From positions 66,424-130,423 of the forward strand of contig CAVRUT010000009.1 of the NCBI GenBank assembly GCA_963724465.1: DNA of 64,000 nt. The letters run 5' to 3'. This stretch comes from an uncultured Acidobacteriota bacterium (GTDB taxonomy: Bacteria; Acidobacteriota; Thermoanaerobaculia; UBA5066; Gp7-AA6). Below, in pieces: positions 13,264-57,416 of the stretch. The position numbers and the translations under genes were made by a program. The notes under the pieces are model-generated. The model made no database searches and was not told where the DNA came from. It saw nothing but the letters and a program-made list of their open reading frames with translations. The stretch's first letter is position 1. Each line of letters starts with the position of its first letter.

Positions 13264-13278
13264 GCCATTCACCTGCTT

Positions 13279-13303
13279 GAATATAACACAATCTGTCATA
13301 TTC
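13279..13303. promoter_or_regulatory. Palindrome GAATAT-N13-ATATTC upstream of HTH-2 (candidate operator, contains a TATATT -10)
   Basis: Perfect 6+6 inverted repeat in an AT-rich patch immediately 5' of the module 2 operon on the minus strand. Confidence 0.35.
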
Positions 13304-13479
13304 ATGGCCCTCAACGGCCCCTGGCCGTCACTTGGAGCGGACCCTGTGCTCCCTCGCAGGCCCGCCGCGCGCCCCTACTCGTTCCTCAAGAGTGCGGCCG
13401 GGTGCGCGCGCGTCCCGCGGATGGCCGGAACGAGGCAGGCGCACATGGCCACGGCGAGGAGCAGCGCGCCCACGCTCTT

Positions 13480-14508: not shown

Positions 14509-14511
14509 GTC

Positions 14512-14559
14512 GGGATCCCTCGCTGCGCTGGGGATGACTGGCAACGCGCTCGGGATGAC
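14512..14559. repeat. Repeat family 1 (GGGATCCCTCGCTGCGCTCGGGATGAC type), copy plus half-site
   Basis: GGGATCCCTCGCTGCGCTGGGGATGAC, then GCGCTCGGGATGAC. Confidence 0.8.
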
Positions 14560-14606
14560 GGCGACTCGGCGGTGCTCGTCGAGCCGCGGTCAGTCAGAAT
14601 GCGTGC

Positions 14607-16918: not shown

Positions 16919-19574
16919 TCATTCGGCGCGCAGAACCTCGAAGAGATTGGCCGACGTCGCCTTCCGCGCGGCGGACCAGGAGGCCGCGATCGCCGCAAGG
17001 CCGAGCAGCAAGACCGCGATCGTGTAGCTGGCAGGGTCGCGCGGCGTGACGCCGAAGAGTTGCGAGCGAAGGAACCGCGCGATGAGGAAGGCGGCGGGGA
17101 TGCCGAGAGCGAGCCCGGCGGCCGCGACGCGCATTCCCTCGCGCAGCACCAGCCGCTGCACCTGGCCCGGCTGCGCCCCAACCGCCAATCGCAAGAGGAA
17201 TTCCTTTCGCCGCTGCGCCACCGAGTGCGCGACGACGCCGTAGAGGCCGACGCAGGCGAGCAGCAGCGCGACGGCGGCGAACGCCCCCGAGAGAATCATC
17301 GTGAAGCGCTGCGCTCCGCGCGCCGCCGTCAGGTACTCGGCCAGCGGGCGAACCTCGGAGATCGGCAGCTCTGGATCGAGGCGGGCCAGGAGCCGGCGAA
17401 TCGGCTCGGCGAGCGCGCCCGGATCCGCGGAGGAGCGCACCACGTATGCCACGGGATTGCGATTGATCTGCCTCTGAGGGAAATAGACCTGCTCCCGCAC
17501 CTCCTCCGAAAGGCTCCGGTGGCGCAGATGCCGGACCACCCCGACGACGGTCGCCCACTTGGTCGGGTGCCCCGTGGATTGCGGGTCGACGCCGAGGCGT
17601 TGACCGACAGCGCTCTGGTTCGGCCACGCGAACCGCGCCAGCCGCTCGTCGACGATCACGACGGGCCGGCCCCTCAAATCGTCCGACTCGTCGAAGCCGC
17701 GACCCGCGACGAGGCGAGCGCCGATTGCCGCGAAGAAGCCCGGCGTGACGGCGCGATAGTCGGCCATCGGGGCCGTCGTATCGTCCGCGCCCGGCGCGGT
17801 GACGTAGGGCCCTCCCCAGTTCGGAATGTGATCGAAAGGCAGATGGCTGACGGCGGCCGCCGCGACGACACCCGGAAGTGCTGACAGTTCCTTTTCGAAC
17901 CGCCGTCCAAACTCGTTGAACGCCTCGTGCGTGGCGTAGCGCGACTCCGGCAGGGCGAGGCGGAACGAGAGCACGCCGTCCGATTGGAACCCGGGATCGA
18001 CGCTCTGAAGGCGGTTGAAGGTCCGCGCGACGAGGCCGGCGCTCACGAGCAGAACGACGCCGAGGGCGATCTGAACGGCGACGAGGACCGTCCGAGTCCG
18101 GGACCGAAGTACCTGCCCCTCTCGCTTGAGCCTTGCGGCCGGGGTCGTCCGCAGGACCTCGGCGAGGGGCGCGAGCGAGAGAAGCACGCCCCACACCAGG
18201 GCCGTGCCGCCGGTGAACACGAGCACGCGCGCGTCGATTCTCGCAGCGGCAATCCGGCTCAGGCTCTCGGGCCGCGACGCGACGAGAGCGGCAAGGGCGG
18301 CCTTCGCCACGGCGATGCCGGCGCAAGCGCCGAGCGCCGCGAGGACGAGGCCCTCGACGACGCACTGCCGAAAGAGGCGCCCCCGGCTCGCTCCGAGGGC
18401 GATCCGGAGCGCGATCTCCTGTCTGCGAGAGGCGGCCCTGGCGGCGAGAAGCCCGGCGACGTTCACGCATGTGATCAGAAGGAGGATGGCGACCCCGCCG
18501 AAGAGCGCGAGCAGTACCGGCCGTATCTCCCTAACGCCGTCGGATTGGAGACCGACCGTGTTGTAGCGCCGACCTCCTCCGCCGTATTCGGTGAACTCCT
18601 GCGAGATCCGGGAGGCGATCGCGTCGATTTCCCGCCTTCCCTGATCGAGAGAGACGCCGGGTCGCATCCGGCCGACGACCCGCAGGAACTGCTGCCCGCG
18701 CGGCCCGGTCGTCATCTTCGGCCAGAAGGGAACCCAGGCCTCGAGGTCGTCCGGTACGGCCGAGTCGGGCGGCAGCAGAAGTCGGAAGGAGGCGGGCATC
18801 ACGCCGATGACCGTCGTCGGCTGCCCGTTGACGAGGATGCGGTGGCCCACGATCCCCGGATCGCCGCCGAACCGCCTCTGCCACAAGGAAGAGCTCAAGA
18901 GGATGCTGGGCGGCGCGCCGACGCCGTCGTCGCCCTCGCGGAACGCCCGGCCTCGCGCAGCCTCCGCTCCCAGGACCGAGAAGAAGTCCGGCGTGACGAG
19001 ACCGATCCGAAGCTGCTCGGGGTCTCCATCGCCATTGAGCGCCGCGCTGCTCGCCCAGATCGCGCCGAAGCCGCCGAACAGTCTCGCGCGTTCGCGCAGA
19101 TCCGCGAGCTCGGGGCCGGAAAGCGGCGCCCGCGGATAGCCGGCGTCGCTCATGTCGGACCACACGAAGACCAGGCGCGACGGTTCGCGATACGGCAGGG
19201 GCGCCAGCAACATCGCATTGACGACGCTGAAGATCGCCGTGTTCGCCCCGATGCCGAGGCCGAGCGTCAGAATCGTCGCCGCCGCGAAGCCCTTGAGACC
19301 TCCAGAGCCCTCTCCAGGCGTACCGCGCGTCCCGCCAGGTGGTCTCCAGGTCGACGCCGATCCGGGCCTCCCGCCCTTCTTCCTTGACGGACTCGACGCC
19401 GCCCATCTCGATCGAAGCCGCGCGGCGCGCGGCCGCCGGCTCGAGCCCCTCTCGGATCTTCTTGTCCGTCAGTGCCTGGAGGTATCCCCGCACTTCTTCG
19501 TCGAGCTCCGCGTCCAGGCGCGAGCGGTGGAAGAGGGTCCGCCACAGGCTCGCAATCCGGGGCATCAGGGGCAT
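16919..19574 (-). pseudogene. ADOP-type duplicated FtsX/MacB-like ABC permease, one frameshift near the N-terminus
   Basis: The N-terminal piece (MPLMPRIASLWRTLFHRSRLDAELDEEVRGYL...WRDARYAWRGL) is in one frame. The rest (KGFAAATILTLGLGIGANTAIFSVVNAMLLAPLPYREP...) is in another. The shift is at about 19290-19300. Confidence 0.8.
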
Positions 19575-42018: not shown

Positions 42019-42093
42019 GATTGGTGCGTTCGGCTCATGCCGCGGCTTCGGGCGCGTGCTTACGATGAGAACGCGGCAGAAGGAGGAATGATT

Positions 42094-42483
42094 ATGGAGC
42101 CCCTTCAGATTCACTTTCTCGACATGCCCGGGTCGGAAGCCGTCGAGGCCAAGATCCGCGAACGCGTCGACCATCTCTCGCGCTTTTCCGCCGATATCGT
42201 GAAGTGCGAAGTCTGGGTCGCATCACCACATGGTCACCACCACAAGGGTGACGTTTACGGGGTGCGCATCCGCCTCACGGTGCCGGGCGAGGAGATCGAC
42301 ATCGACCTGCAACCAGAGGAGGATGACGTTTACATCGCCATCCGCGAGGCCTTCGACGCAGCGCGCCGCAAGCTAGAGGACTACGAGCGGCGGCGCCGCG
42401 GGACGGTCAAGGCCCACCCCCGCGGCGTGGAACGCGATCGGCCGAGGCGTCGCGAGGTCCCCGCGCGTGGCAAGCGCGCCTGA
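42094..42483 (+). CDS. HPF/RaiA-family ribosome-associated (hibernation) protein, short form
   Basis: RBS AAGGAGGAA, then MEPLQIHFLDMPGSEAVEAKIRERVDHL...VRIRLTVPG...IREAFDAARRKLEDY. Confidence 0.7.
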   Translation: MEPLQIHFLDMPGSEAVEAKIRERVDHLSRFSADIVKCEVWVASPHGHHHKGDVYGVRIRLTVPGEEIDIDLQPEEDDVYIAIREAFDAARRKLEDYERRRRGTVKAHPRGVERDRPRRREVPARGKRA

Positions 42484-42494
42484 CATCTGAGGCA

Positions 42495-43379
42495 ATGTCG
42501 ACCGTCACACTGAAAGCGAAGTCGGTCAATCTCGACCTGGCGAGCCGCCTGGACGAGGCGGGTCGGCTCCTGCTCGAACAGGGCGCCAACCCCTATCGAG
42601 TGCGCGCCTACCAGCGGGCCGCCGAGACGCTGCGGGCCCTCGATCGTCCGGTAACCGAGATCCTGGAAACCGAGGGCCTGGAGGGCCTGGACCGGCTTCC
42701 CGGAATCGGCATGACGCTGGCACGGGCGATCCGGGACACCGTGCGCCTGGGCCGGATGCCCATGCTCGAGCGGCTGCGCGGCGAGATGGACCCCGTCTCT
42801 CTGCTTTCGTCCGTGCCGGGAATCGGAGAGCGGCTGGCGCATAAGATTCACGAGGACCTGGGGATCGACTCGCTCGAGGATCTCGAGGCGGCGGCTCACG
42901 ACGGGCGCCTGGCGTCGATCGCGGGCCTCGGCAGGAAGAGAGTCGCCGGCGTCATCGACACGCTCGAGAGCCGTCTGCGAAGGGTGCGCATGAATCCGAC
43001 TCCGACCGAGGAAGCGCCGGTCGAGGAGATCCTCGACGTGGACCGGGAGTATCGAGAGGAAGCGGCCGCCGGAACTCTTCACCGGATCGCGCCACGGCGC
43101 TTCAACCCGGAGGGGAAGGCGTGGCTCCCGATCCTGCACACGCAGCGGGGCCCGCGGCACTACACGGCGCTCTTTTCCAATACGGCGAGGGCGCACGAGC
43201 AGGGCAAGACGGACGACTGGGTGGTCCTGTATTACGACGGAGGCGGGGGAGAGCGGCAGAACACCGTGATCACGTCCGAGCGCGCACCCCTGCGCGGGCG
43301 GCGCATCGTCCGTGGGCGGGAGGATGAATGCGCCCGGTACTACGCGGCGGAGTCGCCGTCACCGCGGAGGAGAACCGAG
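42495..43379 (+). CDS. Helix-hairpin-helix DNA-binding protein (PolX N-terminal-like)
   Basis: NPYRVRAYQRAAETL, LPGIGMTLARAI, VPGIGERLAHKI, LGRKRVAGV. No stop codon lies before the next gene's ATG. Confidence 0.6.
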
Positions 43380-43913
43380 ATGAAAGATCCCTGGAGGAAG
43401 CTGCTCGTTTTCGTTGCGGGATTCGCGCTCGCCGCAGGCGTCGCTGCCGGGTCCGGAATCGACGAGATCGACCGGTACCACCGGGTCAACGATCGGGTTG
43501 CGGTCGCCGGTCAGCCGACTCCGGCGCAGGTCGGGGCCATTGCCCAGGCGGGCTTCCGCACGATCATTAATCTGCGGCAGGAGTCGGAGCTCGACGCGCA
43601 GCCGGAGATCGAGGCCGCAAAGGACGCGGGACTGCGCTACATCTCGATCCCGATCTTGTCGGCGAGCCCGTCGGAGGAGCGCGTCGGGGAGTTCCTCCGC
43701 GTGACGGACGACCCGGACATCTATCCCGTCTTCATCCACTGCGCGACGGCCAATCGCGCCTCGGCCCTCTGGATGGTGCGTCGTGTGCTGCGCGACGGCT
43801 GGACTCTCGAGGAGGCCGAGAGGGAGGCCGGGCAGAACGGGTTGACGAGCGAAAGCCTCCGCAAGTTCGCCCGCGAGTACATCGAGACCCACGTTCCCCG
43901 GCCGGCGAACTGA
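43380..43913 (+). CDS. Secreted DUF442/PTP-loop phosphatase-like protein
   Basis: RBS GGAGGAG 7 nt upstream and signal peptide MKDPWRKLLVFVAGFALAAG. VAGQPTPAQVGAIAQAGFRTIINLR and an IHCATANRAS loop. Confidence 0.65.
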   Translation: MKDPWRKLLVFVAGFALAAGVAAGSGIDEIDRYHRVNDRVAVAGQPTPAQVGAIAQAGFRTIINLRQESELDAQPEIEAAKDAGLRYISIPILSASPSEERVGEFLRVTDDPDIYPVFIHCATANRASALWMVRRVLRDGWTLEEAEREAGQNGLTSESLRKFAREYIETHVPRPAN

Positions 43914-45284: not shown

Positions 45285-46013
45285 TCAGCTCCCGCTCTCG
45301 TCCCGTGTTCCTGCGAACACCTCACGGACGTCTTCCGCCGAGCGGGCTTCCAGAAGCCTCCGGACCAACTCCTCCTTGTGAACGAGGTAGCTCAGCCGAG
45401 CCTCCCAGAGGAGCTGGATCGAGACTGTCTGGGTTAGCAGGATGAAGGCGATCCTTGGTCGGTGCTCGTAGGGGTCATGAAAGTCAACCGGTCCGAGGGC
45501 CCGAATCACCACGATCTGGTTCGACCCGAGCAGGCGTCTGCCCGCTTCCTTCGGATGCGGATACGCGACATCCGGATGGAACGCGGTGCTAGAAAGAGCT
45601 TCGCGCTCGAGGACGGACCGGCAGATCCGCTCGTTCGCCGTTTCAGCCCCGGCCGGTCCCGGGCCCTCAGCGAGCACGATGCGAGCGCGGCGAAAGGCAG
45701 CGCGGATGAGCTGCGCCGCATCGCGCTGGGGCGCGTCGAGGAAGACGTTCTGAACGTCCAGATAGGGATGAAGGCTGATCTCACAGCCCGGGTAACTGAC
45801 TGGCTCGGCCGGCATTTGCTCCACGGACCGGCGTCTCGCAATCCACTCTTCCAGATCGCTGACGCGCAGACGCCAGCGTCCATCCACGCGGACAGCGTGA
45901 AGTTCCCCCGATAGTCGCCGGACGGTCGTCGGAGAGAGCGAGAGATAGCGCACAGCGTCGGCGACCGACATCGTCTCCTCGGCGTCGAGCATCTCCTGCT
46001 CCTGCGAACCCAT
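45285..46013 (-). CDS. Excisionase-type HTH fused to a PTS EIIA-2 (PtsN-like) domain, copy 2
   Basis: N-terminus MSVADAVRYLSLSPTTVRRL...RLRVSDLEEWI. The EIIA-like core has the His loop VAYPHPK and FILLT...LLWEARLSYL. Its start is 1 nt after the upstream stop. Confidence 0.65.
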   Translation of the reverse strand: MGSQEQEMLDAEETMSVADAVRYLSLSPTTVRRLSGELHAVRVDGRWRLRVSDLEEWIARRRSVEQMPAEPVSYPGCEISLHPYLDVQNVFLDAPQRDAAQLIRAAFRRARIVLAEGPGPAGAETANERICRSVLEREALSSTAFHPDVAYPHPKEAGRRLLGSNQIVVIRALGPVDFHDPYEHRPRIAFILLTQTVSIQLLWEARLSYLVHKEELVRRLLEARSAEDVREVFAGTRDESGS

Positions 46014-46377: not shown

Positions 46378-47097
46378 TCAGTTGCCGACCCTTGCCGAGA
46401 GCTCCGGCTCCAGGATCCGCTCCGCTTGAATGAGTGACTCGTAAATCGCGGCGGTGTCCGCAGCCTCGAGCAGGTCCTTGACGGCGTGCTCACGAGCGAG
46501 CATTTGCGAGAGCTTGAAGAGCCAGGGCAGGTGCAGCTCTTCGTACTTGAGGCCCAACACGAAGAAGAGATGCGTCGGTTTTCCGTCGAGGGCGTCGAAT
46601 TCCACTCCCTCGAGCGACCGCCCGAGCACCATGAACGGTCGGACGATCTGCTCGGGATTGCGGCGCAGCGTGTGCAGGAAGGCGATGCCACCTCCGAATG
46701 CTCCCGGAAACACGTTTTCCCGTTGAATCAGAGCCCCCACGAACCAGGTCTTGTCGCGGACGAGTCCCAGGCGGTGCGCGAGCCCCGACAACTCTTCGAT
46801 CACCCCGTTCTTGGTCTGGGCGGTGAGCTCCGGGATGATGTGATCCGGCTGAAAGCAGGTCGAAAGACCCAGCATGCGCCGGGGCGAACCCTCCATCGGA
46901 GGTCCGCTGAGATAGCGGGGCAACACTCCCAGCATCTGGTCGTCCAGCCAGGTGTCGATCATTGCCTTTCGAAAACGCCATTGGCTGCCGACCTTCACGC
47001 CCGGAACGGTGCCGTCAGCCACCAGCTTCAAGGCGGTCCGCTCGTTAACGTTCAGGTAAGCAGCCAGTTGCTTCACAGTCATCAAGCGATCTTCCAT
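46378..47097 (-). CDS. Excisionase-type HTH fused to a PTS EIIA-2 (PtsN-like) domain, copy 1
   Basis: MTVKQLAAYLNVNERTALKLVADGTVPGVKVGSQWRFRKAMIDTWL. The EIIA-2 core is TKNGVIEELSGL...GGGIAFLHT...THLFFVLG...HLPWLFKLSQML. Confidence 0.75.
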   Translation of the reverse strand: MEDRLMTVKQLAAYLNVNERTALKLVADGTVPGVKVGSQWRFRKAMIDTWLDDQMLGVLPRYLSGPPMEGSPRRMLGLSTCFQPDHIIPELTAQTKNGVIEELSGLAHRLGLVRDKTWFVGALIQRENVFPGAFGGGIAFLHTLRRNPEQIVRPFMVLGRSLEGVEFDALDGKPTHLFFVLGLKYEELHLPWLFKLSQMLAREHAVKDLLEAADTAAIYESLIQAERILEPELSARVGN

Positions 47098-47590: not shown

Positions 47591-47726
47591 CCATCTAGTC
47601 GGCGGCTCTCCGTGCGTGGTTGGGTCTGGTCGGAAAGCACGAGAGGGTCAGTGGCGAGCGGTGTAGGAGCCGAACGGAGCGCGTGCGCTAAGCCAAGGAC
47701 TGATCCGATAAGGGCCGGACCTTAGG

Positions 47727-47880
47727 TGAACCCATGGGATTCTTGCGAATCCCTGAATGATTTCGACTTACTCCCTCGATTTGTCCGTATCGATGTCCGC
47801 GTTGGCGTGGAGAAAACGAGATGCGGATCGGCCCGTGGGCCAGCGTTCGAGCTGAACTTCAGCTCGTCGCAGCGCGCAGC
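47727..47880. repeat. X repeat, copy A (begins with the tmRNA T-loop heptamer TGAACCC)
   Basis: ATGGGATTCTTGCGAATCCCTGAATGATTTCGACTTACTCCCTCGATTTGTCCGT... aligns with copies at 49885 and 52705. Hairpin GGGATTC/GAATCCC at 47736-47753. Confidence 0.7.
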
Positions 47881-47939
47881 AGACACTGGAGAAGGGAGCG
47901 TGCCGCGGCCGCTGGTATCGTGGGGCCGGAGGTGCCGCC

Positions 47940-48932
47940 ATGAGCCGCCTGGCCGCCGTTCTCGCCGCGCTCCTTCTGGCGCCGATCGCGCTGACCGCCG
48001 AGCCTTCGCCAACGGTCCCGCTTCGCCCGGTCCACACCTACTCGATCGTCGCCCGCGATGCGGCGACGGGCGAGATGGGCGTGGCCGTTCAGTCGCACGC
48101 GTTCTCGGTCGGCTCGGGCGTGACGTGGGCGGAGGCGGGCGTGGGCGCGGTCGCGACCCAGTCGTTCATCGACCCGAGCTACGGGCCGCTCGGCCTCGCC
48201 ATGATGCGCGCCGGGCGGAGCGCCCCCGACGCCCTCAAGGGGCTCCTTGCGGCAGACGACGGGCGCGACGTGCGGCAGGTGGCGATGATCGACGCCTCCG
48301 GCCGCGTCGCCGCCCACACCGGCGTGAAGTGCATTCCGGCCGCGGGGGATCACGTCGGCGAGAACTACTCCGTCCAGGCGAACCTGATGGAGAAGGACAC
48401 CGTGTGGCCCGCGATGGCGAAGGCGTTCGAAACGACGCGCGGCGACCTCGCCGATCGGATGCTCGCCGCGCTCGAGGCCGCCCAGGGGGAGGGCGGCGAC
48501 ATCCGCGGCATGCAGTCGGCCGCGATTCTCGTCGTCAAGGGCGTCTCGAGCGGGCGGCCGTGGCAGGACCGAATCTTCGACCTCCGCGTCGAGGACCATC
48601 CGTCGCCCGTCGCGGAGCTTCGGCGCCTCGTCAGGCTCCAGCGCGCCAACAACCTCGCGAGCGAAGGGGACCGCGCGTTGGAGAAGAAGGACGACGCCAA
48701 GGCGCTCGAGGCCTACGGCGCGGCCGAGACCCTTGTCCCCGACGACGCCGAGATGGCCTACTGGCACGCCGTCGCCATGGTGAACGCGGGGCGCTTGGAC
48801 GAATCGCTCCCCGTCTTCGCGAAGGCCTACCGCCTCTACCCCAAATGGCGTGAGATGGCAGCGCGCCTCTCGAAGGTGGGGCTCCTCCCGGACGACCCGA
48901 AGGTCATCGCCCGCATCGTCGCCGCGAAGTAG
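47940..48932 (+). CDS. DUF1028 family (Ntn-hydrolase-like) secreted protein with a TPR-like tail, copy 1
   Basis: Signal peptide, then HTYSIVARDAATGEMGVAVQSHAFSVGSGVTWAEAGVGAVATQSF, typical of DUF1028. About 93% aa identity to 50782-51774. Confidence 0.75.
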   Translation: MSRLAAVLAALLLAPIALTAEPSPTVPLRPVHTYSIVARDAATGEMGVAVQSHAFSVGSGVTWAEAGVGAVATQSFIDPSYGPLGLAMMRAGRSAPDALKGLLAADDGRDVRQVAMIDASGRVAAHTGVKCIPAAGDHVGENYSVQANLMEKDTVWPAMAKAFETTRGDLADRMLAALEAAQGEGGDIRGMQSAAILVVKGVSSGRPWQDRIFDLRVEDHPSPVAELRRLVRLQRANNLASEGDRALEKKDDAKALEAYGAAETLVPDDAEMAYWHAVAMVNAGRLDESLPVFAKAYRLYPKWREMAARLSKVGLLPDDPKVIARIVAAK

Positions 48933-48987
48933 CGGGTCGGGCTGCGGCTCGCTGAGCTTGCACGGAGCGAGGAGTCACTTCTCTTTT

Positions 48988-49165
48988 CTTGAGAAACAGG
49001 AAATGGTGGACGTCCTCCAGGCGATTGCGCGCTCTTGGGACGAGTTTCGAGGCAATTGCGCGACAGCTCGGAGTGAGCGAAAAAGACCGTTGAGAAATCT
49101 TTGCGAAACTAAACGGACCGATCGAGCCATCGCTCTGGCGTCCGAAGATGGGGGACGGCTACATC
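48988..49165 (+). pseudogene. Degenerate LuxR-type HTH fragment
   Basis: Pieces EMVDVLQAIA / IARQLGVSEK / LRNL...DRAIALA lie in different frames with an internal stop. They resemble the C-terminal HTH of LuxR/FixJ regulators. Confidence 0.35.
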
Positions 49166-49169
49166 GTCT

Positions 49170-49269
49170 CGGCCAAACAGGTGGGGTCACGCCGGGGCTC
49201 GTCCGGATCTCCGTCGGCATCGAGGACGCGGCCGACATCCTGGCCGACCTCGATCAGGCACTGGCCTGA
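49170..49269 (+). pseudogene. Orphan 3' fragment of the cystathionine gamma-lyase/synthase gene (diverged copy of the 56283-56370 end)
   Basis: Encodes ...GVTPGLVRISVGIEDAADILADLDQALA*, identical at the aa level to the C-terminus of 56283-57416. About 85% nt identity by eye. Confidence 0.7.
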
Positions 49270-49299
49270 CGAGGCGGGCTCGCGCGCCCGCCCGGGGCC

Positions 49300-49581
49300 T
49301 CAGCTCGCGTGTCGGAGGCGCATCGGTCCCCGGGCGGCGCGTTCCTCCGGGAACGCAACGGCGACCGGGCGCGTGCGGACGGGGGCCTGCATCCACTTGG
49401 CCATCAGCCAGAACTGCTCGCCGCCGCACTTGGGGCACGTCCGGTTCCGGACGCTGAAGGTGACCAGGCAGTCGAGACAGAGCGCCGTCTCGCCTTCCCG
49501 GACGGCCTCGCCGAACCTCGACTCGGCACGAATCCGGGAATCGGACCATCCCAGCCAGTTCGACTGATCACGGACCCCCAT
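49300..49581 (-). CDS. Small zinc-ribbon protein (93 aa), copy 1
   Basis: RBS GGAGG, with CLDC...CPKC. The central 46 codons are identical in aa to 55971-56252, with 5 synonymous nt differences. Confidence 0.65.
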   Translation of the reverse strand: MGVRDQSNWLGWSDSRIRAESRFGEAVREGETALCLDCLVTFSVRNRTCPKCGGEQFWLMAKWMQAPVRTRPVAVAFPEERAARGPMRLRHAS

Positions 49582-49739
49582 GGGAGCCTCCTTCGTTCCG
49601 AGCCGCCTTTCGATCGCTGCGACTCGGGGGTCGGCCCCGGCAGAGTCCAGCGGGACCCCTGATGCTATCGCGACTTCCTGTCTGGGAGGACAGGTGTCGA
49701 GGTCCCACGGACAGGTACGGACAGGTCTTCGATGGCGGC

Positions 49740-49880
49740 TAAACGTTGTCAGCGCACGAGTTCGACGCGCGATACGGTCGGTCGGACCGAGGGAACTGGG
49801 GGAGGGTAACGGCTTCGGACCCGGACGATACGCGGCAGGAACGAGGCCGAAACATGGAGAGACGAAACCGACACCTGGCG
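49740..49880 (-). pseudogene. Degenerate 3' fragment of the VWA-like gene (copy of the 55700-55820 end)
   Basis: ...CTCCCCCAG...GCGTCGAACTCGTGCGCTGACAACGTTTA aligns with the end of 54558-55820. The frame is broken by one base. Confidence 0.5.
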
Positions 49881-49884
49881 GGAA

Positions 49885-49970
49885 CGATCCGATTCCTGGA
49901 GTTTTCATCTTTGAATTGGAAATTCCTGAGTGATTTGAGTCACCTCCCTTGTCGTTGTCCGCGTTGCGGC
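49885..49970. repeat. X repeat, copy B (most diverged)
   Basis: ...AATTCCTGAGTGATTTGAGTCACCTCCCTTGTCGTTGTCCGCGTTGCGG aligns with X-A and X-C. Confidence 0.5.
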
Positions 49971-50144
49971 TGCATGATGGCGATGACGGCCCACGCCGCG
50001 GGCGAACGCACGCGTCGCAGATCGGCGGGCAACGGCTCGATACCCTGCCGTGGGCTGGATGTATACATTGCGTATGTCCGAGGCCCATGAACGCACGAAA
50101 GCAAGAGCCGCTCGACTTCGCCTGAGAGAAAGAGATCTTGCCTG

Positions 50145-50711
50145 ATGTCCCTCCTCGCCCTCCTCTGCGCCTCCGCGCTTGCGCTTGCCGGCGCGGAGCC
50201 CGCGATGCGCGAGGAGGTGGCCGGCGTACCGAACTTCGCGGTTGTGTCGCCGGTCCTGTCGCGCGGCGCGCAGCCGACGCACGAGGGTTTTCGCGCCCTG
50301 CGCGAACGCGGGATCCGGACGATCGTCGCGCTGCGCTGGGTGCACGATGATGACGCGGCGCTCGCGGGGCTCGGCCTGAACTCCTACCGGCTCCGCGCCA
50401 AGCAGTGGCACCCGGAGACTGAAGACGTGGTGCGCGCGATGAAGGTGATCCTCACGCCGGAGTACCAGCCCGTCTTCGTCCACTGCCAGGCCGGGAAGGA
50501 CCGCACGGGCCTCGTCGTCGCCGTCTACCGGATCCTCGTGGACGGGTGGAGTGTGGACGACGCGATCGCCGAGCGGAAGGCCTTCGGCGCCGCGGATTTC
50601 TGGGAAGAGAACAAGACGTACCTCATGCGCCTCCGGAGTGCGGAAGCGAGACGGGAGCTCATGGCGGCCATCGAGGCCGCTCCCGTGCCGCCCGTCGTCC
50701 TGGTGCCGTAG
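50145..50711 (+). CDS. Secreted dual-specificity/tyrosine protein phosphatase
   Basis: Signal peptide and PTP loop VHCQAGKDRTG. Confidence 0.8.
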   Translation: MSLLALLCASALALAGAEPAMREEVAGVPNFAVVSPVLSRGAQPTHEGFRALRERGIRTIVALRWVHDDDAALAGLGLNSYRLRAKQWHPETEDVVRAMKVILTPEYQPVFVHCQAGKDRTGLVVAVYRILVDGWSVDDAIAERKAFGAADFWEENKTYLMRLRSAEARRELMAAIEAAPVPPVVLVP

Positions 50712-50781
50712 GTCCCTCGTCGAGATCTCGAGAAGGGAGCGCACCGGCGGCCGCTGGTATCGTGGGGCCGGAGGTGCCGCC

Positions 50782-51774
50782 ATGAGCCGCCGGACCGCCG
50801 TTCTCGCCGCGCTTCTTCTGGCGCCGATCGCACTGACCGCCGATCCTGCGCCCCCGATCCCGCTTCGCCCGGTCCACACCTACTCGATCGTCGCCCGCGA
50901 TGCGGCGACGGGCGAGTTGGGCGTGGCCGTCCAGTCGCACGCGTTCTCGGTCGGCTCGGGCGTGACGTGGGCCGAGGCGGGCGTGGGCGCGGTCGCGACG
51001 CAGTCGTTCATCGACCCGAGCTACGGGCCCCTCGGCCTCGCCATGATGCGTGCCGGACGGAGCGCCCCCGATGCCCTCAAGGGGCTCCTTGCGGCCGACG
51101 ACGGGCGCGACGTGCGGCAGGTGGCGATGATCGATGCCTCCGGCCGCGTCGCGGCGCACACCGGCGCGAAGTGCATCCCGGCCGCGGGGGATCACGTCGG
51201 CCAGAACTATTCCGTCCAGGCGAACCTGATGGACAGGGACACCGTGTGGCCCGCGATGGCGAAGGCGTTCGAGACGACGCGCGGCGACCTCGCCGATCGG
51301 ATGCTCGCCGCGCTCGAAGCCGCCCAGGGGGAGGGAGGCGACATCCGCGGCATGCAGTCGGCCGCGATCCTCGTCGTCAAGGGCGTCTCGAGCGGGCGGC
51401 CGTGGCAGGACAAGATCTTCGACCTCCGCGTCGATGACCATCCGTCGCCGGTCGCGGAGCTCCGGCGCCTCGTCCGGCTCCAGCGCGCCAACAACCTGGC
51501 GAGCGAGGGGGATCGCGCGTTGGAGAAGAAGGACGACGCCAGGGCGCTCGAGGCCTACGGCGCGGCCGAGGCTCTCATCCCCGACGACGCCGAGATGGCC
51601 TACTGGCACGCCGTCGCCCTCGTGAACGCGGGCCACGTGGACGACTCACTCCCCGTCTTCGCGAAGGCCTACCGCCTCTACCCCAGGTGGCGCGAGATGG
51701 CCCCGCGCCTCTCGAAGGTGGGACTTCTTCCGGACGACCCGAAGGTCATCGCTCGAATCGTCGCGGCGAAGTAG
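50782..51774 (+). CDS. DUF1028 family secreted protein, copy 2
   Basis: Collinear with 47940-48932, with 22 aa differences in 330 by my count. Confidence 0.75.
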   Translation: MSRRTAVLAALLLAPIALTADPAPPIPLRPVHTYSIVARDAATGELGVAVQSHAFSVGSGVTWAEAGVGAVATQSFIDPSYGPLGLAMMRAGRSAPDALKGLLAADDGRDVRQVAMIDASGRVAAHTGAKCIPAAGDHVGQNYSVQANLMDRDTVWPAMAKAFETTRGDLADRMLAALEAAQGEGGDIRGMQSAAILVVKGVSSGRPWQDKIFDLRVDDHPSPVAELRRLVRLQRANNLASEGDRALEKKDDARALEAYGAAEALIPDDAEMAYWHAVALVNAGHVDDSLPVFAKAYRLYPRWREMAPRLSKVGLLPDDPKVIARIVAAK

Positions 51775-51898
51775 CGGGTCGGGTCGCTGGGACGGGTCGT
51801 GTGACTAATTCTTCGCGGGCTTCGCGTTGCGCGGGTCGTCTGCCGGGTTCACATACTTGAACTCGACCGGACCCTTCATCGCCGGACCGGAATCGCGG

Positions 51899-52339
51899 CT
51901 ACTTCACGACCTGGAGCTTGAGACCTTCCGCGGCGATCTTGAGGCTGGCGCCCTTCGTCACGCTCGTCAGCAGGATCGAGACGCCGTTCGCGTTGGTCAG
52001 CGCGCTCGCCCCGGCGCCCTTGCCGGCCGTCGCCCCGGCGCCACCCGCCGCATAGACGCCGTCGAAATCCTCGAGCTTCTGCAGGTTGTAGACGTTGCCC
52101 TTTGCCTTGACGTTCGTGAGGCCCAGCTCGCCGACGGTGAGGCCCTCGATCTTGACCTTGTACGTCTTGCCTTTGTAGTTCATGGTTCCGTGGCCCCAGC
52201 TCCAGCCGATTCCTGCGGCGAACGAGCCCTCAGAGAGTCTCAGCGTAGCGTCCACCTTCTTGTCTTCGGCCAGCGCGGCGCCCGCAAGCAGCGTCATCAG
52301 GCACGCCACCACCACCGATGCGATCCAGCGACGATGCAT
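51899..52339 (-). CDS. Secreted hypothetical protein (possibly DUF1134-like)
   Basis: Signal peptide and Gly/Ala-rich beta-type repeats (AAGIGWSWGHGTMNYKGKTYKVKIEGLTVG). Confidence 0.55.
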   Translation of the reverse strand: MHRRWIASVVVACLMTLLAGAALAEDKKVDATLRLSEGSFAAGIGWSWGHGTMNYKGKTYKVKIEGLTVGELGLTNVKAKGNVYNLQKLEDFDGVYAAGGAGATAGKGAGASALTNANGVSILLTSVTKGASLKIAAEGLKLQVVK

Positions 52340-52639
52340 GAATTCCTCCTCCTGGCAACTGGCTGCCGGTGGATTCCGGCAATGCGAAGTCTATCCAAGA
52401 CACCCGACGGATGGCTAGTGTCCGGAAACTGTCAGTCGGATGTGCGCCGGCGGCGCCCTCCGGCGGCGCGGGCAGGACGGCTGGTACTTCGCCCGCGTCG
52501 CCTTGTAAGCCTTGTCCCACGCCTCGGACTTGCCCGTAGCGAGCGACGTCTTGATGTCCGGATCGGCTTCCTCGAACGACGAGGGTGCTCCCCGGCGGTA
52601 GGTCGAGAGATCAACCTGGCGTGCGAATCCAATAGAAAA

Positions 52640-52658
52640 GGGCCGGAAGTTCCGGCCC
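52640..52658 (-). terminator. Intrinsic terminator, inferred original ssrA terminator
   Basis: On the minus strand: GGGCCGGAA-C-TTCCGGCCC followed by TTTTCTATT. It lies 20 nt after the displaced tmRNA CCA end. Confidence 0.7.
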
Positions 52659-52678
52659 TCGTCTCGATAGATATGAAA

Positions 52679-52704
52679 TGGTGAAGGCGGCGGGAGTTGA
52701 ACCC
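52679..52704 (-). repeat. Displaced copy of the last 26 nt of ssrA (attR-like core)
   Basis: TGGTGAAGGCGGCGGGAGTTGAACCC versus TGGTGGAGGCGGCGGGAGTTGAACCC at 53625-53650 (25/26). Confidence 0.8.
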
Positions 52705-52906
52705 ATGGAATTCCTGCCAATTCCTGAACGATTTCGACGTACTCCCCCGATTTGTCCGTGTCGTTGTCAGCGTTGCCCGGCCGTTCTCGAAGAGCTGAAT
52801 AGCCGGTTGCAAAGGGCTCCGCTCCAGATCCGAGAAAAGTAAGCGTCCAACGGCACCTCTCAAGCCTCTGTTTTTCTCTCAGAAGTCGCAGGAATCAGCC
52901 TTCATG
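52705..52906. repeat. X repeat, copy C (longest; abuts the displaced ssrA end)
   Basis: ATGGAATTCCTGCCAATTCCTGAACGATTTCGACGTACTCCCCCGATTTGTCCGT.... Hairpin GGAATT/AATTCC at 52707-52724. Confidence 0.7.
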
Positions 52907-52908
52907 GC

Positions 52909-53054
52909 CGGGAGAGGCCACTCCACGCTTAGCCTCCTCTGGGTTCTTGCCCCGCCACCTCGAGAAGAGGCAAGACGGCGGAAGGGCAACTCGGGATTCG
53001 TTTCGCCGCCGGGTCCGGGGAACCGCCGCGGCTACACCGGCATTTCGCGACGTC
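52909..53054 (-). pseudogene. Partial, diverged copy of internal tmRNA sequence
   Basis: 146 nt collinear with 53667-53812, with about 22 mismatches by eye. The 11-bp helix of the intact gene carries 3 mismatches here. Confidence 0.7.
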
Positions 53055-53334
53055 ACCGGTAGGCATCCTTCCGATGATCGGCGGCGGTCAGGAAGACGAT
53101 GTGCTTCTCGTCGTCGATCTCGTAGAAAAGCCGCCAGCTCCCGATCCGAATTCTCCAGGTCGGAGGATCCCAGTCCTTGAGGCGCGCGGCCGACGCAGCG
53201 GCGCGGGGCGCCGCCCGGAGAATCGGATAGACCCGCTTCAAGAGCGTGTTCTGGATTCGCTTCGCCGCTTCGGGTCCGAGGGTGGCGAGATCGCGCTGGA
53301 AGCCTGTCGTCTCGAAGATGCGGTACTCAGACAA
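53053..53334 (-). CDS. RelE/ParE-family type II toxin
   Basis: ...WRIRIGSWRLFYEIDDEKHIVFLTAADHRKDAYR. It overlaps the antitoxin gene by 8 nt. Confidence 0.8.
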   Translation of the reverse strand: MSEYRIFETTGFQRDLATLGPEAAKRIQNTLLKRVYPILRAAPRAAASAARLKDWDPPTWRIRIGSWRLFYEIDDEKHIVFLTAADHRKDAYR

Positions 53335-53566
53335 AGCGGCCCTTGCCGCTCACCGCGTCTCGATGGCCTCTCTTCAGGCGCCGGCCAAGAGCGGGCTTGG
53401 AGCGAATCTCGCTCATCTCGGCATCCGACACGAAGATCTCCGCCACGGCTCGCTGTCTGGCTGCCGTCTCGATGAAGTTGGAGACCGAGCGGTTCTCCGT
53501 GGCGGCGGCCTCGGCGATGAGGCGGTACGTCGCGTCGTCGATGCGAACGGTCAGGGTCTTGGGCAT
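53327..53566 (-). CDS. Ribbon-helix-helix (CopG-like) antitoxin
   Basis: MPKTLTVRIDDATYRLIAEAAATENRSVSNFIETAARQRA. It lies upstream of and overlapping the toxin gene. Confidence 0.7.
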   Translation of the reverse strand: MPKTLTVRIDDATYRLIAEAAATENRSVSNFIETAARQRAVAEIFVSDAEMSEIRSKPALGRRLKRGHRDAVSGKGRFV

Positions 53567-53624
53567 TGCATCACTCCGATAGCATATTACCATCATAGTG
53601 ATGCAGCCCGTTCTGAAAGAGGAA

Positions 53625-53985
53625 TGGTGGAGGCGGCGGGAGTTGAACCCGCGTCCGGAAGCGCGGCGGGAGAGGCCACTCCATGCTCAGCCTCTTCTTG
53701 GTTCTCGCCCTGCCGCCTCGAGAAGAGGCAAAACGGCGGCAGGGCAACCCCGAATTGATTTCGCCGCTCCGTCCGGGGGTCCGGAGCGGCTACACCCGCA
53801 TTTCGCGACGTCGGGCGCGGCGCGGCGGGTGCGCTACACGCCAAACGAGGCTACTTAATTAAGCAGCCAGAGCGAAGTTGCTGTTGTTCGCAGCTACTAT
53901 TTTTCACCCTGCTTTTACGAGGAGGGGTGAGACCTCGGCATGCGACCTCTCGCGTCATCGTCCCCGTCGAAGCCGTTTCGCCCCC
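53625..53985 (-). ncRNA. ssrA: tmRNA (SsrA), tag AANNSNFALAA
   Basis: 5' GGGGGCGAAACGGCTTCGACGGGGA. The acceptor stem has a G3:U pair. The tag ORF GCU GCG AAC AAC AGC AAC UUC GCU CUG GCU GCU UAA (53859-53894) follows AAAAAUAGUA. The 3' end is GGACGCGGGTTCAACTCCCGCCGCCTCCACCA. Confidence 0.93.
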
Positions 53986-54557: not shown

Positions 54558-55820
54558 TTGACCTCCGGCGTCCAGCAGGTGAGGTTGAACGTCCAGGGCC
54601 GCGTCGCGGAGGTAGAGCTCCTCCTCGACGGCGAAGAAGTCGCCACGTTCGACAGCCCGCCCTGGGTCGCGCCGATCGATCTCGGTCCGGCGCTGTCGCC
54701 GCACGAGCTCGTTGCCCGCGCGCTCGACGAGAAGGGCTCGGAGATCACCCGGGTGCGCCAGTGGATCAACATGCCGCGGCCGCCGGCCGAGGCCAAGATC
54801 CTCCTCGAGCGCGACGCGAAGGGGCGCGTGAAGGCCGCGACGATCGCCTGGCAGAACCTGATGGGGGAGGAGCCGTCGAAGATCTCCGTCAGCTTCGACG
54901 GCCGGCCCGTCGCGATCGACGCTTTTCGCCGCGTGATCATCCCGCCGTACGCGCCCGAGGTCTCGCACGTCCTGACCGTCGAGCTCGATTTCGAGAGCGG
55001 GATGAGCTCGCGGGACGATCTCGCGATCGGAGGCGGCGCGGGCGACGAGGCCAGAAGCGAGCTGACGGCCGTTCCGGTCCGCCGGACGACCAGGCGCAAG
55101 CTCGAGCCGAAGGCGTTCGATGGCCTCCTGCGCGTGCGCGATCAGCCGCTCCGCGTGGCGACGGTCGAGGAAGGGGGCGCCTCGCTCTGGATCGTGCGCG
55201 ACGAGAGCGCCCTCGAATCCTTCTCGAAGCTGCGATCCGGCAGCGGTTCCCCGCTCGGAGGGATCTTCGCCCCCTCGGCCCTGCCGCTGAAGAAGGGAGA
55301 CGAGGTCCGCTTCCTCTGGCCGCGGCCGAGAGGCGTGGCCGGCGCCGCCGTGCCGACGGCCCTCTTTCCGTCCTCGCAGCTCTTCGACCGCTCGAGCGGC
55401 GGCCTCGCCTTCCTGCTCGAGCGCATCACCAACACCGAGCCGGCGGGGCTCTTTCCGATGTACACGGACGCCGTGGCGGTCGCGGGACTGAATGCCTTCG
55501 AGAGCTTTGGACGGCGCGCCGTGCTCCTCGTGCTGACCGGCTCGGCCCCGGACCTGAGCACCTACAAGCCCGCGGTCGTCCGGCGGTACCTGGAGATCCT
55601 GCGCGTGCCGCTCTTCGTGTGGTCGCTCGACGCGGAGGCTTCCGGCGAATCCCCGTGGGGCAGCGTCGACGCCGTCGGCACGAGCCGGGGGCTGCGCGCC
55701 GCCTACTCGCGGCTGCGCGAGTCGCTCGACTCACAGGCGATCGTTTGGGTCGAGGGCCGCTATCTCCCCCAGGAGATCGAGCTCGCGCCATCCGCATCGG
55801 GCGTCGAACTCATGCGCTGA
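54558..55820 (+). CDS. VWA-related (TIGR03436-like) protein, 5' end unresolved
   Basis: The C-terminal part resembles the acidobacterial VWFA-related domain (AVLLVLTGSAPDLS...LEILRVPLFVWSL). The first start codon (TTG 54558) lies after a signal-peptide-like stretch (ATVAFLSLFLGL) that has no start of its own. Confidence 0.55.
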   Translation: MTSGVQQVRLNVQGRVAEVELLLDGEEVATFDSPPWVAPIDLGPALSPHELVARALDEKGSEITRVRQWINMPRPPAEAKILLERDAKGRVKAATIAWQNLMGEEPSKISVSFDGRPVAIDAFRRVIIPPYAPEVSHVLTVELDFESGMSSRDDLAIGGGAGDEARSELTAVPVRRTTRRKLEPKAFDGLLRVRDQPLRVATVEEGGASLWIVRDESALESFSKLRSGSGSPLGGIFAPSALPLKKGDEVRFLWPRPRGVAGAAVPTALFPSSQLFDRSSGGLAFLLERITNTEPAGLFPMYTDAVAVAGLNAFESFGRRAVLLVLTGSAPDLSTYKPAVVRRYLEILRVPLFVWSLDAEASGESPWGSVDAVGTSRGLRAAYSRLRESLDSQAIVWVEGRYLPQEIELAPSASGVELMR

Positions 55821-55970
55821 CAACGTTTAAGCGTCACCGATCCCTTGCCCGTACGACCTGGACACCTGTCCCCGGGGACAGGAAATCGCGATACGATTCC
55901 TGGTCCCGCTGGACTGGGCTCGCCCCCGAGTCGCAGCGACGGAAGACGGCTCGGAACCAAGGAGGCTCGC

Positions 55971-56252
55971 ATGAGGGTCCTTGATCGGTCGAACTGGCTG
56001 GGATGGTCCGATTCTCCGATTCGAGCCGAGTCGAAATTCGGCGAGGCCGTCCGGGTAGGCGAGACGGCGCTCTGTCTCGACTGCCTGGTGACCTTCAGCG
56101 TTCGGAACCGGACCTGCCCCAAGTGCGGCGGCGAGCAGTTCTGGCTGATGGCCAAGTGGATGCAGGCTCCCGTCCGGACGCGCCCGGTCGCCGTTCCGTT
56201 CCCGAAGGAACACGTCGCCCGGAGACCGATGCGTCTCCGAGAGGCGGGCTGA
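55971..56252 (+). CDS. Small zinc-ribbon protein (93 aa), copy 2
   Basis: RBS AAGGAGG, with CLDC...CPKC. Paralog of 49300-49581. Confidence 0.65.
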   Translation: MRVLDRSNWLGWSDSPIRAESKFGEAVRVGETALCLDCLVTFSVRNRTCPKCGGEQFWLMAKWMQAPVRTRPVAVPFPKEHVARRPMRLREAG

Positions 56253-56282
56253 GGCCCGGGCCGGACGCCCAAGCCCGGCTCG

Positions 56283-57416
56283 TCAGGCCAGCGCCTGGTC
56301 CAGGTCGGCCAGGATGTCGGCCGCGTCCTCGATTCCTACGGAGATGCGCACGAGGCCAGGGGTCACGCCGAGGCGATTGCGCTCCTCCTCCGGAATCGAG
56401 CCGTGGGTCATCGAGGCGGGATGCGAGATGAGCGTCTCGACGCCGCCGAGGCTCTCACCGAGCGAGCAGAGGCGCACCTTCGCCAGGAACGCGCCGGCCG
56501 CCTCGAGCGACCCGAGATCGAACGAGATCATCGCGCCGAACCCCCGCATCTGCTTCTTCGCGAGGGCGTGCTGGGGATGGGACGGCAGCCCCGGGTAGTG
56601 GACCTGCTGGATCTTCGGATGCCGGGCGAGGTGCTCGGCGACTTTCCGGCCGTTCTCCTCGTGGCGCTCCATGCGGACGACGAGGGTCTTGATCCCGCGG
56701 AGCACCAGAAACGAGTCCATCGGCGACAGGATCGCGCCCGAGCTGTTCTGCACGAACCCGAGCCACTCGACGTGCTCCTTCGCCTTCGCGATGGCGACGC
56801 CGCCGACCGTGTCGGAGTGGCCGCCGAGAAACTTCGTCGTCGAGTGCATGACGATGTCGGCGCCGAGCGAAAGCGGCTGCTGAAGGTACGGTGAGGCGAA
56901 AGTGTTGTCGACGACGACGATGGCGCCGACGCGATGGGCGAGCTCCGAGAGCCGCGCGATGTCGGCCAGCCGCATCGTCGGGTTGGTCGGCGATTCGAGG
57001 TGGAGCATCCGCGTCTCCGGCCGGATCGCCCGCTCGACCGCCGCCGGGTCCGCCGTGTCGACGAAGTCGAACGTGACGCCGTAGCGCGCCAGGATCTTCG
57101 TGTAGTAACGGTAGGTCCCGCCGTACGTCATGTTCGAGCAGACGACGTGGTCGCCCTGCTTGACGAAGGTCGAGATCGCCGTGATCGCCGCCATGCCCGA
57201 GGCGAAGGCCTTCGCGCCCGTTCCGCCCTCGAGGACGGTGAGGTTCTCCTCGAGCCGCGCGCGCGTCGGGTTCTGTGTGCGCGCGTACTCGAAGCCCTTG
57301 TTCCGGCCGAGCCCCTCCTGGACGTAGGTCGAGGTCTGGTAGATCGGGAACGAGACGGACCCGGTCGCGGGCTCGGGTTCGTTCCCGGCGTGAATGCAGT
57401 CGGTCGAGAAGCCCAT
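56283..57416 (-). CDS. Cystathionine gamma-lyase/gamma-synthase family PLP enzyme
   Basis: Cys/Met-metabolism PLP family: YARTQNPTR, the HSTTKFLGGHSD lysine motif, and the C-terminal RISVGIEDAADILADL. Confidence 0.9.
   Translation of the reverse strand: MGFSTDCIHAGNEPEPATGSVSFPIYQTSTYVQEGLGRNKGFEYARTQNPTRARLEENLTVLEGGTGAKAFASGMAAITAISTFVKQGDHVVCSNMTYGGTYRYYTKILARYGVTFDFVDTADPAAVERAIRPETRMLHLESPTNPTMRLADIARLSELAHRVGAIVVVDNTFASPYLQQPLSLGADIVMHSTTKFLGGHSDTVGGVAIAKAKEHVEWLGFVQNSSGAILSPMDSFLVLRGIKTLVVRMERHEENGRKVAEHLARHPKIQQVHYPGLPSHPQHALAKKQMRGFGAMISFDLGSLEAAGAFLAKVRLCSLGESLGGVETLISHPASMTHGSIPEEERNRLGVTPGLVRISVGIEDAADILADLDQALA

Follow-up and report, generated by a model that had tools for sequence, protein, structure and literature searches.

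Islands that insert into ssrA, the gene for transfer-messenger RNA (tmRNA), are known from Dehalococcoides (McMurdie et al. 2011; PMC3146451), and they provide the closest described parallel to the subject of this report: three copies (A, B and C) of a short repeat, X, that lie downstream of ssrA in a 64-kb stretch of contig CAVRUT010000009.1 from an uncultured Acidobacteriota bacterium (Thermoanaerobaculia; UBA5066; Gp7-AA6). The whole of this stretch is called the window. The Dehalococcoides islands are arranged in tandem, are bounded by a 20-bp repeat of ssrA and insert in mid T-loop; directly upstream of each repeat lies a conserved motif of 15 bp that cannot be aligned with ssrA. Sixteen of these islands carry a six-gene integration module, with the serine recombinase DsiB encoded beside attL, and some others that have no integration genes were read as cis-mobilizable or fixed (PMC3146451). 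More generally, displaced fragments of tRNA and tmRNA genes (tDNA) mark the ends of islands, and integration restores the target gene; among the targets, the tmRNA gene is the most enriched one, and islands in tandem arrays have been described (PMC4383910). In cis-mobilizable elements, the integration and transfer genes have been lost while the attachment (att) junctions were kept; such elements are stacked by accretion, which includes integration into attR (PMC5704250, reviewing Pavlovic 2004 and Bellanger 2011).

The window resembles the Dehalococcoides loci in having tandem junctions downstream of a single tmRNA gene and a conserved motif beside an ssrA repeat. An initial annotation had read the three X copies as possible relics of serial integrations into ssrA. 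Here we report where X begins and ends, what adjoins it in other genomes and how that reading should be amended. We think it probable that X represents the P-arm at junctions of the attR type, in a tandem array of islands that has decayed, the product of related islands that recombined into the T-loop of ssrA.

The tmRNA gene and the X copies of the window

The intact tmRNA gene at 53625-53985 is the integration target. It lies on the minus strand, such that downstream of ssrA means toward lower coordinates. The features that define the array are as follows.

53625-53985, minus strand: intact tmRNA gene (ssrA), tag AANNSNFALAA (ARAGORN; Rfam RF00023, 186 bits, full model)
53625-53650, minus strand: 26-nt identity block (the core), comprising three T-stem G's, the T-loop, the 3' T-stem, the acceptor 3' strand and ACCA (sequence comparison)
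52706-52785, no strand assigned: X copy C (nhmmer E 2e-49; alignments)
52680-52705, minus strand: displaced ssrA 3' end, 25/26 matches, in direct orientation with ssrA (alignment)
49916-49987, no strand assigned: X copy B, degenerate, with an 11-nt deletion and without a core (nhmmer E 1e-5 / 6e-6; BLAST to L003)
47724-47824, no strand assigned: X copy A, with a 10-nt core remnant at 47724-47733, AGGTGAACCC (nhmmer E 2e-25)

To avoid circularity, two profile hidden Markov models were built from external loci only and were used in nhmmer searches of the 64-kb window. They matched C (52582-52804, E 2e-49), A (47724-47824, E 2e-25) and B (49916-49987, E 1e-5 and 6e-6). These profiles detected no fourth copy in the 64 kb, the sole other match being the core of the intact ssrA, and the proposed family of three is thereby borne out. 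A (47724-47804) and C (52695-52775) share 86% identity over 81 ungapped nt (BLAST E 1e-19). The homology is shorter than first described: it covers only some 80-100 nt in each copy (the core and 52706-52785 in C; 47734 to about 47813 in A; 49916-49987 in B), and the spans once assigned to A (to 47880), C (to 52906) and B (from 49885) include unique sequence beyond these limits.

One edge of the repeat is sharply defined. At ...GTTGAACCC|AT, similarity to ssrA ends and similarity among the X copies begins, which is the T-loop boundary that had been proposed; homology between ssrA and the X junctions stops exactly at the 26-nt core (53625-53650). The identity block, GGGUUCAACUCCCGCCGCCUCCACCA, is common to ssrA and to all complete X junctions and runs from the T-stem and T-loop to the 3' end of the gene, a canonical sublocation for tDNA islands. 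The crossover point must lie within the core or at its 5' edge.

The three copies differ in how much of the core they keep. X_C adjoins the displaced ssrA end on the higher-coordinate side of the latter, and the full 26-nt end that had been reported before C is indeed present, in direct orientation, with 25 of 26 positions matching. A begins at AGGTGAACCC, which matches the core end at nine of ten positions and retains the TGAACCC noted earlier. By contrast, the degenerate remnant claimed for B does not hold: no core remnant with statistical support was found there, and the B alignment starts inside the hairpin described below. Since A and B have no complete core, these two junctions are probably dead, in the sense that they no longer recombine. 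The right end of B (GCGGCTGCATGATGGCGA) is of the subtype found in L003 and L027 (contigs introduced below), and A is 89% identical to L003 as compared with 86% to C. Left of TGAACCC, A is weakly similar to the flank of the terminator beside C (p 0.016-0.034). As this value is only marginal and nhmmer gave no extension there, we rejected a leftward extension of the homology. C, B and A all lie in the orientation of ssrA within 5.9 kb, and no recombinase was found in the units.

X copies in other genomes

Seven further X copies were found, on seven Acidobacteriota contigs. A pattern internal to X matched a single genome, an Acidobacteriota metagenome-assembled genome (L001; contig CAVXTP010000018.1). 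Protein searches with X-only translations added L002 and L003 by way of two spurious open reading frames (ORFs), scanning for the ssrA core followed by AT gave L020 and L027, and L035 and L038 were reached through neighbouring genes (ParE and a Cys/Met enzyme). All seven copies are fused to an ssrA 3' end at the same T-loop nucleotide, bringing the contigs in which X is linked to an ssrA end to eight with the window. The 26-mer that adjoins X is identical in L001, L002, L003, L020 and L027. Where X, core and a following terminator form one unit, the unit is 75-89% conserved across genomes. The source names of homologues indicate Thermoanaerobaculia or Acidobacteriota, and the X island family is so far confined to such Acidobacteriota-type (Thermoanaerobaculia-like) contigs. 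The X patterns had no match in viral contigs (three scans), in phage and plasmid collections or in the first metagenome pattern search, and looking up the exact Cys/Met enzyme of the window likewise gave nothing.

Relatives that have no X beside ssrA were also found (L031, L032, L034, L036, L037 and L039). Four of them, L039 as well as L034, L036 and L037, represent related genomes without the island at this locus: the upstream synteny is kept (PALP, Cys/Met enzyme, CutA1, ssrA), and other DNA follows directly downstream.

Other kinds of insertion use the same target. A set of 23 junctions (among L005-L030) belongs to an unrelated, low-G+C and apparently marine family that uses this 26-nt ssrA end at an identical T-loop position, together with a conserved arm of its own bearing tandem ATGTAGCA repeats. 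One member, L025 (2272-2400, 5186-5223), is a 2.9-kb island with a single TPR-sulfotransferase gene and no integrase. In L036, a second ssrA end of 24 nt (8807; 10845-10868) lies 2 kb downstream of ssrA and bounds a small p450 segment without X, which is another island type at the ssrA target.

Recombinant joints at the core

The joints at the core involve three further features of the window.

52582-52679, minus strand: spacer, intrinsic terminator hairpin (52638-52660) and about 55 nt of flank, the type-1 3' partner (terminator scan)
53053-53596, minus strand: cassette of an RHH antitoxin (53327-53596) and a ParE toxin (53053-53334) (Pfam)
42037-43913, plus strand: conserved far-side anchor, consisting of HPF (42037-42483) and a protein with HHH and DSP-phosphatase domains (42495-43913) (Pfam)

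Just beyond the displaced ssrA end lies a strong intrinsic terminator (52660-52638, minus strand). The type-1 spacer and terminator have homologues in L001, L002 and L003, and in L039 they follow intact ssrA; the context of L039-L043 contained no integrase, and this joint turned up instead. The RHH/ParE cassette starts 28 nt past ssrA in the window; it also follows ssrA in L032 and the X-core in L020 (84% nucleotide identity; ParE, 86% amino-acid identity). The 5' partners ssrA body and X and the 3' partners type-1 spacer/terminator and RHH/ParE are found in all four possible combinations.

ssrA body with type-1 spacer/terminator: L039 (intact tmRNA 13048-13408)
X with type-1 spacer/terminator: window C, L001, L002, L003
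ssrA body with RHH/ParE: window, L032
X with RHH/ParE: L020

A contig that carries both an ssrA gene and an X junction provides an internal comparison. In L035, ssrA (14230-14590) and X-core (17168-17276) lie in the same orientation, 2.66 kb apart, with X-core downstream, and both have the T-loop variant TTCGACT. TTCAACT is present in every other complete X-core and in the other ssrA genes that were read, and the decayed core of L038 has TTCCCCT. A shared variant would be expected of a displaced end that originated in the resident gene. Taken together, the four partner combinations and this shared variant are the signature of site-specific recombination at the 26-nt core.

Pairs of X contigs diverge at the same place. 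L003 and L027 have a common X side, including a CrtI-like gene, and part company from the first base past the core; L001 and L038 share otsB, X and core (otsB, 95% identical) and diverge a few bases past the core. In L020, the far-side anchor (phosphatase-HHH-HPF, homologous to window 42.2-43.9 kb) directly adjoins the RHH/ParE cassette. The 3' side of this X-core is thus the conserved anchor, which places X on the inserted side.

Anatomy of X

Moving away from the core, X consists of two bases, a 7-bp palindrome, a nearly invariant centre of 37 nt and two heptamers of the TTGTCCG type. The palindrome, GGAATTC-N4-GAATTCC (4-nt spacer), begins 2 nt from the core in nine copies and is perfect in four. 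Its arms lie at 52708-52714 / 52719-52725 in C and at 47736-47742 / 47747-47753 in A. Across the copies, 94% of the cells are paired. The hairpin and its one compensated pair, which had been noticed in the window, are present (A, GGGATTC/GAATCCC vs. GGAATTC/GAATTCC), this being the one clean compensated change. The 37-nt centre is a partial inverted copy of the core. The heptamers (TTGTCCG/TTGTCAG; in C, 52753-52759 and 52765-52771) are spaced 12 nt apart in most copies, at 48-66 nt from the core, and the statistics on them speak to conservation only. A similar motif lies across the core in C (52547-52567), L001 and L003.

What might such an arrangement be for? The initial annotation had allowed either an RNA structure or a protein-binding arm site; the RNA gained no support (see below), and a protein-binding site is the more likely of the two. 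As far as its layout can be compared, X resembles an attP arm, and the palindrome and TTGTCCG heptamers are putative binding sites of the recombinase or of accessory proteins.

Gene blocks and cassettes around the junctions

The DNA between and beyond the junctions comprises the following features.

52909-53054, minus strand: partial second ssrA copy, 85% identical to 53667-53812 (alignment)
52786-52908, no strand assigned: window-specific DNA between the ssrA fragment and X_C (no similarity to other X loci)
49988-52581, no strand assigned: C-B cargo block (Pfam)
51899-52339, minus strand: secreted protein, C-B block
50782-51774, plus strand: DUF1028-2, C-B block
50145-50711, plus strand: DSP-type phosphatase, C-B block
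47825-49915, no strand assigned: B-A cargo/junk block (Pfam; sequence comparison)
49300-49581, minus strand: small Zn-ribbon ORF, within the inverted copy 49198-49777
49009-49088: helix-turn-helix (HTH) fragment, B-A block
47940-48932, plus strand: DUF1028-1, B-A block

The partial ssrA copy, which starts at the ParE stop codon, had been overlooked. X_C and about 120 unique nt replace some 14-17 nt of the 5' half of its T-arm; the counterpart of this fragment in L031 runs uninterrupted to the CCA end. The RHH/ParE cassette itself is a mini-insertion between long direct repeats of the ssrA 3' part. These repeats are a perfect 64 nt in L032 (9330-10348), an uninterrupted 189 nt in L031 (9769-10469) and, in the window, a 146-nt piece that is 85% identical to the functional gene. 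The displaced partial copy that holds X_C is the product of a separate insertion of the RHH/ParE cassette. L031 has in addition a second, degenerate ssrA copy (6393-6711) without the last 10 or so nt, then about 3 kb of unrelated DNA and TCCACCA (9690-9700) before RHH, a layout suggestive of an insertion at the outermost 3' bases of ssrA, and these 20 kb gave no call of a functional tmRNA.

The C-B and B-A blocks are mosaics. A module of terminator flank and secreted protein is 92% identical in L038. The DUF1028 gene (92-94% nucleotide identity) is convergent to ParE, without X, in L033 and L038 and thus travels as a module in the hot spot. In the B-A block, the HTH fragment (LuxR/GerE-like; 49009-49088) is 94% identical to L031 9535-9613, upstream of RHH/ParE. 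A segment at 49198-49777, about 140 nt from X_B, is an inverted copy, at 86% identity, of 55792-56354 upstream of ssrA; it comprises the 3' end of the Cys/Met enzyme gene (a pyridoxal phosphate enzyme) and the Zn-ribbon gene, and its first part is 92% identical to L036.

On the far side, homologues of the anchor are found at L020 6850-9123 and L037 7734-8066. The position of HPF and the HHH/phosphatase gene delimits a variable region of about 9.7 kb (43.9-53.6 kb). Copy A is therefore not the outer edge of this region, as had been supposed: the anchor starts only at 43.9 kb, and the 3.8 kb between copy A and the anchor contain no recognisable att remnant. The distance from ssrA to HPF is about 11 kb in the window and 2.9 kb in L037, the closest case. 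At 45285-46013 and 46378-47097 are two paralogues that fuse an excisionase-type HTH_17 domain to EIIA_2 of the phosphotransferase system. These are regulators rather than recombination directionality factors, and they could be mistaken for excisionases.

Interpretation and alternative explanations

Our interpretation builds on the repeat family, its T-loop boundary, its linkage to ssrA ends in eight contigs, the four joints and the absence of X at the ssrA loci of several relatives. Islands of this family would recombine site-specifically into the T-loop of the tmRNA gene. Each would carry the final 26 nt of ssrA in a copy of its own, which would regenerate the gene on integration, and the displaced original 3' end would come to lie at the island's far end, joined to X. 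The three junctions that the window has in direct orientation within 6 kb downstream of ssrA would then be a recombinase-less array of accreted remnants of the cis-mobilizable type, scrambled further by deletions, by the DUF1028 duplication and by the separate insertion of the RHH/ParE cassette. The maker of the joints, a site-specific recombinase, and the order of the integration events are what we infer from the arrangement. The recombinase was most likely a tyrosine integrase that acted in trans or has since been lost; a serine type, as in Dehalococcoides, is possible.

The initial claim that the repeats are relics of related elements integrated into ssrA is thus backed by the copies and recombinant joints in other genomes. 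Its account of their history fared less well. It had held that each event pushed the older attR outward and that cores decay with age. Decay is not ordered by distance from ssrA (nhmmer, C 114 bits, B 21, A 88), and the terminator flank of the type that follows ssrA in L039 adjoins C, the innermost copy, and not the outermost. Simple serial pushing-outward is therefore not the history. The layout of the window needs at least one deletion, one gene duplication and, probably, an exchange of composite segments between strains.

Several observations weigh against our interpretation. The first is the position of the type-1 terminator flank just mentioned, which is contrary to a simple serial model. 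The location of X_C within a partial ssrA copy also calls for one further deletion or more, and the partial inverted copy of the core at the centre of X has no explained role. Some copies of X show no visible constraint: in L038, both X and core are decayed beside an otsB that is 95% identical to that of L001. Five of the seven external contigs have no ssrA in the 0.5-9.4 kb available on the X side. Finally, there is the matter of the missing enzyme. Pfam detected no integrase, resolvase or excisionase in the scanned ORFs, which cover most of window 40.5-58.7 kb, in agreement with what had been noted for the blocks at the outset; the same is true of recombinases in the scanned or annotated parts of 67.5 kb of external X contigs (L001, L002, L020, L035 and L038; L003 and L027 excluded). 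Hence no integrase gene lies inside these islands as far as they were scanned, and no Resolvase or Recombinase domain appeared in any scan, the DNA beside ssrA being the RHH/ParE cassette and not a DsiB module. Nor was an intact autonomous member of the family, or a cognate element with an integrase of the same specificity, present in viral contigs (three scans), the phage and plasmid collections or 15 related loci (among them L001-L003, L020, L027 and L031-L039).

The alternatives fare worse than islands integrated at the T-loop. It is conceivable, albeit unlikely, that ssrA is an integron-like platform: the X-core and ssrA-end sites would still be active and would be served by a recombinase encoded elsewhere in the genome, with modules of one to three genes, none bringing a recombinase of its own, being shuffled as cassettes from genome to genome at the 26-nt core. 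Candidate modules are RHH/ParE, terminator plus secreted protein, DUF1028, the phosphatase, otsAB and extracytoplasmic-function (ECF) sigma-YCII.

Somewhat less credible still is the notion that X-core-terminator is ancestral chromosomal DNA, such as the stump of an old second ssrA, which served only as a secondary target, with the variable DNA lying to its other side, and never belonged to a mobile element. Four genomes conserve the unit without interruption, the genes on the X side are ordinary metabolic ones with no mobile-element hallmark (otsA/B, a CrtI-like oxidoreductase, a sulfatase), and the X side is the conserved side in L003/L027 and L001/L038. However, it is the 3' side of X-core that leads to the chromosomal anchor in L020 (RHH/ParE, then phosphatase-HHH-HPF), and X-core lies downstream of an intact ssrA in L035. 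Each lineage has different DNA past X, X itself is not similar to the tmRNA body, and L039, where the type-1 terminator follows ssrA directly, has no X.

A segmental origin of the copies within the window, by tandem duplication of a unit of X plus DUF1028 and not by separate integrations, is very unlikely. The DUF1028-TPR genes on the right-hand side of A and B share 93.6% identity across 1057 nt (47886-48941 vs. 50727-51783), and the left flank of A bears the faint resemblance to the C terminator flank noted above (p about 0.02-0.03). The duplicated stretch nevertheless starts 62 nt beyond the end of X_A and excludes X, and the divergence between X_A and X_B far exceeds that of the genes (the 11-nt deletion in B; 21 vs. 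88 bits). B has a right-hand extension in common with L003 and L027 and not with A; A is nearer to L003 than to C; and DUF1028 stands beside ParE without X in L033 and L038. The boundary and the separate affinities of A and B largely refute this origin for X.

Could X and the ssrA 3' end together be a small RNA gene? The product would be a tRNA-like domain of minimal size, equipped with a terminator of its own, and 5' GGGGGAG would pair with 3' CGCCUCC (a G3:U pair included). The Rfam tmRNA model does align end to end with L001 3743-3812 (20.9 bits) and window 52679-52748 (18 bits), and a terminator follows in four loci in a unit that is 75-89% conserved. These scores compare with a gathering score of 47 and come mostly from the genuine 26-nt ssrA end; alignments at 18-21 bits arise because the X centre mimics the 5' acceptor strand. 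Substitutions in the putative 5' strand (L002, GGGCGAG; L003 and A, GAGGGAG) disrupt pairs and are not compensated, RNAalifold reported zero compensatory pairs for either strand, and folding energies were no better than those of shuffles (z +0.6 to -2.4, mostly near 0). Covariation in the hairpin is weak, with 27-59 of 500 shuffles equally good. Moreover, A, B and L038 show free decay of both core and X, X-core has other 3' partners and no terminator in L020, L027, L035 and L038, and a promoter scan of 47.4-54.1 kb returned no sigma-70-like site. We consequently rejected an RNA structure for X or X-core, including the mini tRNA-like domain, as highly improbable.

That X is part of a protein-coding region, for example a gene end overlapping the attachment site, is refuted for practical purposes, notwithstanding frames that stay open through X at several loci (the gene-caller ORFs P0001 and P0002 span it) and the fact that, of the three substitutions in the invariant centre, two would be silent in two frames, given that the indels (11 nt in B, 13 nt in L038) would shift the reading frame, that A has a stop codon in one candidate frame, that the open frames continue through the tmRNA end and the terminator hairpin, that chance open frames are expected at 62-70% G+C, and that X translations searched against 5.8 billion proteins gave only two ORFs, both spurious overlaps.

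Comparison with known systems

How does an array of ssrA islands with these properties compare with those described before? From the Dehalococcoides islands it differs in phylum and in cargo, and no recombinase was found here, let alone a DsiB module. The flank beside the ssrA repeat is also of another kind: in place of a 15-bp motif, there are about 80-100 nt with a palindrome and tandem heptamers, which makes it more like the attP arm of a tyrosine integrase.

The window shares more of its layout with the tDNA islands defined by Islander (Williams 2002, cited in PMC4383910). An intact target gene stands at one end (tmRNA, 53625-53985), C has a displaced 3' fragment in direct orientation, and attP would be of the T-stem-region class. 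It departs from them in that junction C lies inside a longer displaced ssrA fragment left by another insertion. Furthermore, Islander requires an integrase for each island, and the units of the window, in which none was found, would be filtered out; island finders built on this requirement would miss such arrays. The array thus does not pass as an autonomous island and fits the decayed, accreted form.

That form is represented by cis-mobilizable accretion, in which decayed att junctions are stacked at one target, as they are in the window: C, B and A are att-type junctions in direct orientation, and no integration genes were found in the units. For the streptococcal cases (PMC5704250), cognate integrative and conjugative or integrative and mobilizable elements with integrases are known and excision was shown experimentally, whereas no autonomous partner was found here. 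Two of the three window junctions have lost the core, unlike cis-mobilizable elements that retain their att junctions.

In the attP sites of lambda, HP1 and L5, arm-type direct repeats lie at a distance from the core. X is comparable in having about 80-100 nt conserved on one side of the core, with TTGTCCG repeats about one helical turn apart (12 nt). Its palindrome directly beside the core and its partial inverted core copy are non-standard for a lambda-type attP, and no clear consensus for integration host factor (IHF) was seen on reading the sequence; the arm role is putative.

The locus documents a T-loop-specific ssrA integration hot spot, together with a new conserved att arm, in an uncultured Acidobacteriota clade, and it explains the mosaic of single genes, fragments and duplicates in the 9.7 kb downstream of ssrA. 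X and the 26-nt core provide a sequence handle with which island ends can be mapped in the metagenome-assembled genomes of the clade. This kind of integration hot spot has been described already and no new mechanism is revealed; what is new is the lineage in which it occurs and the sequence of its arm.

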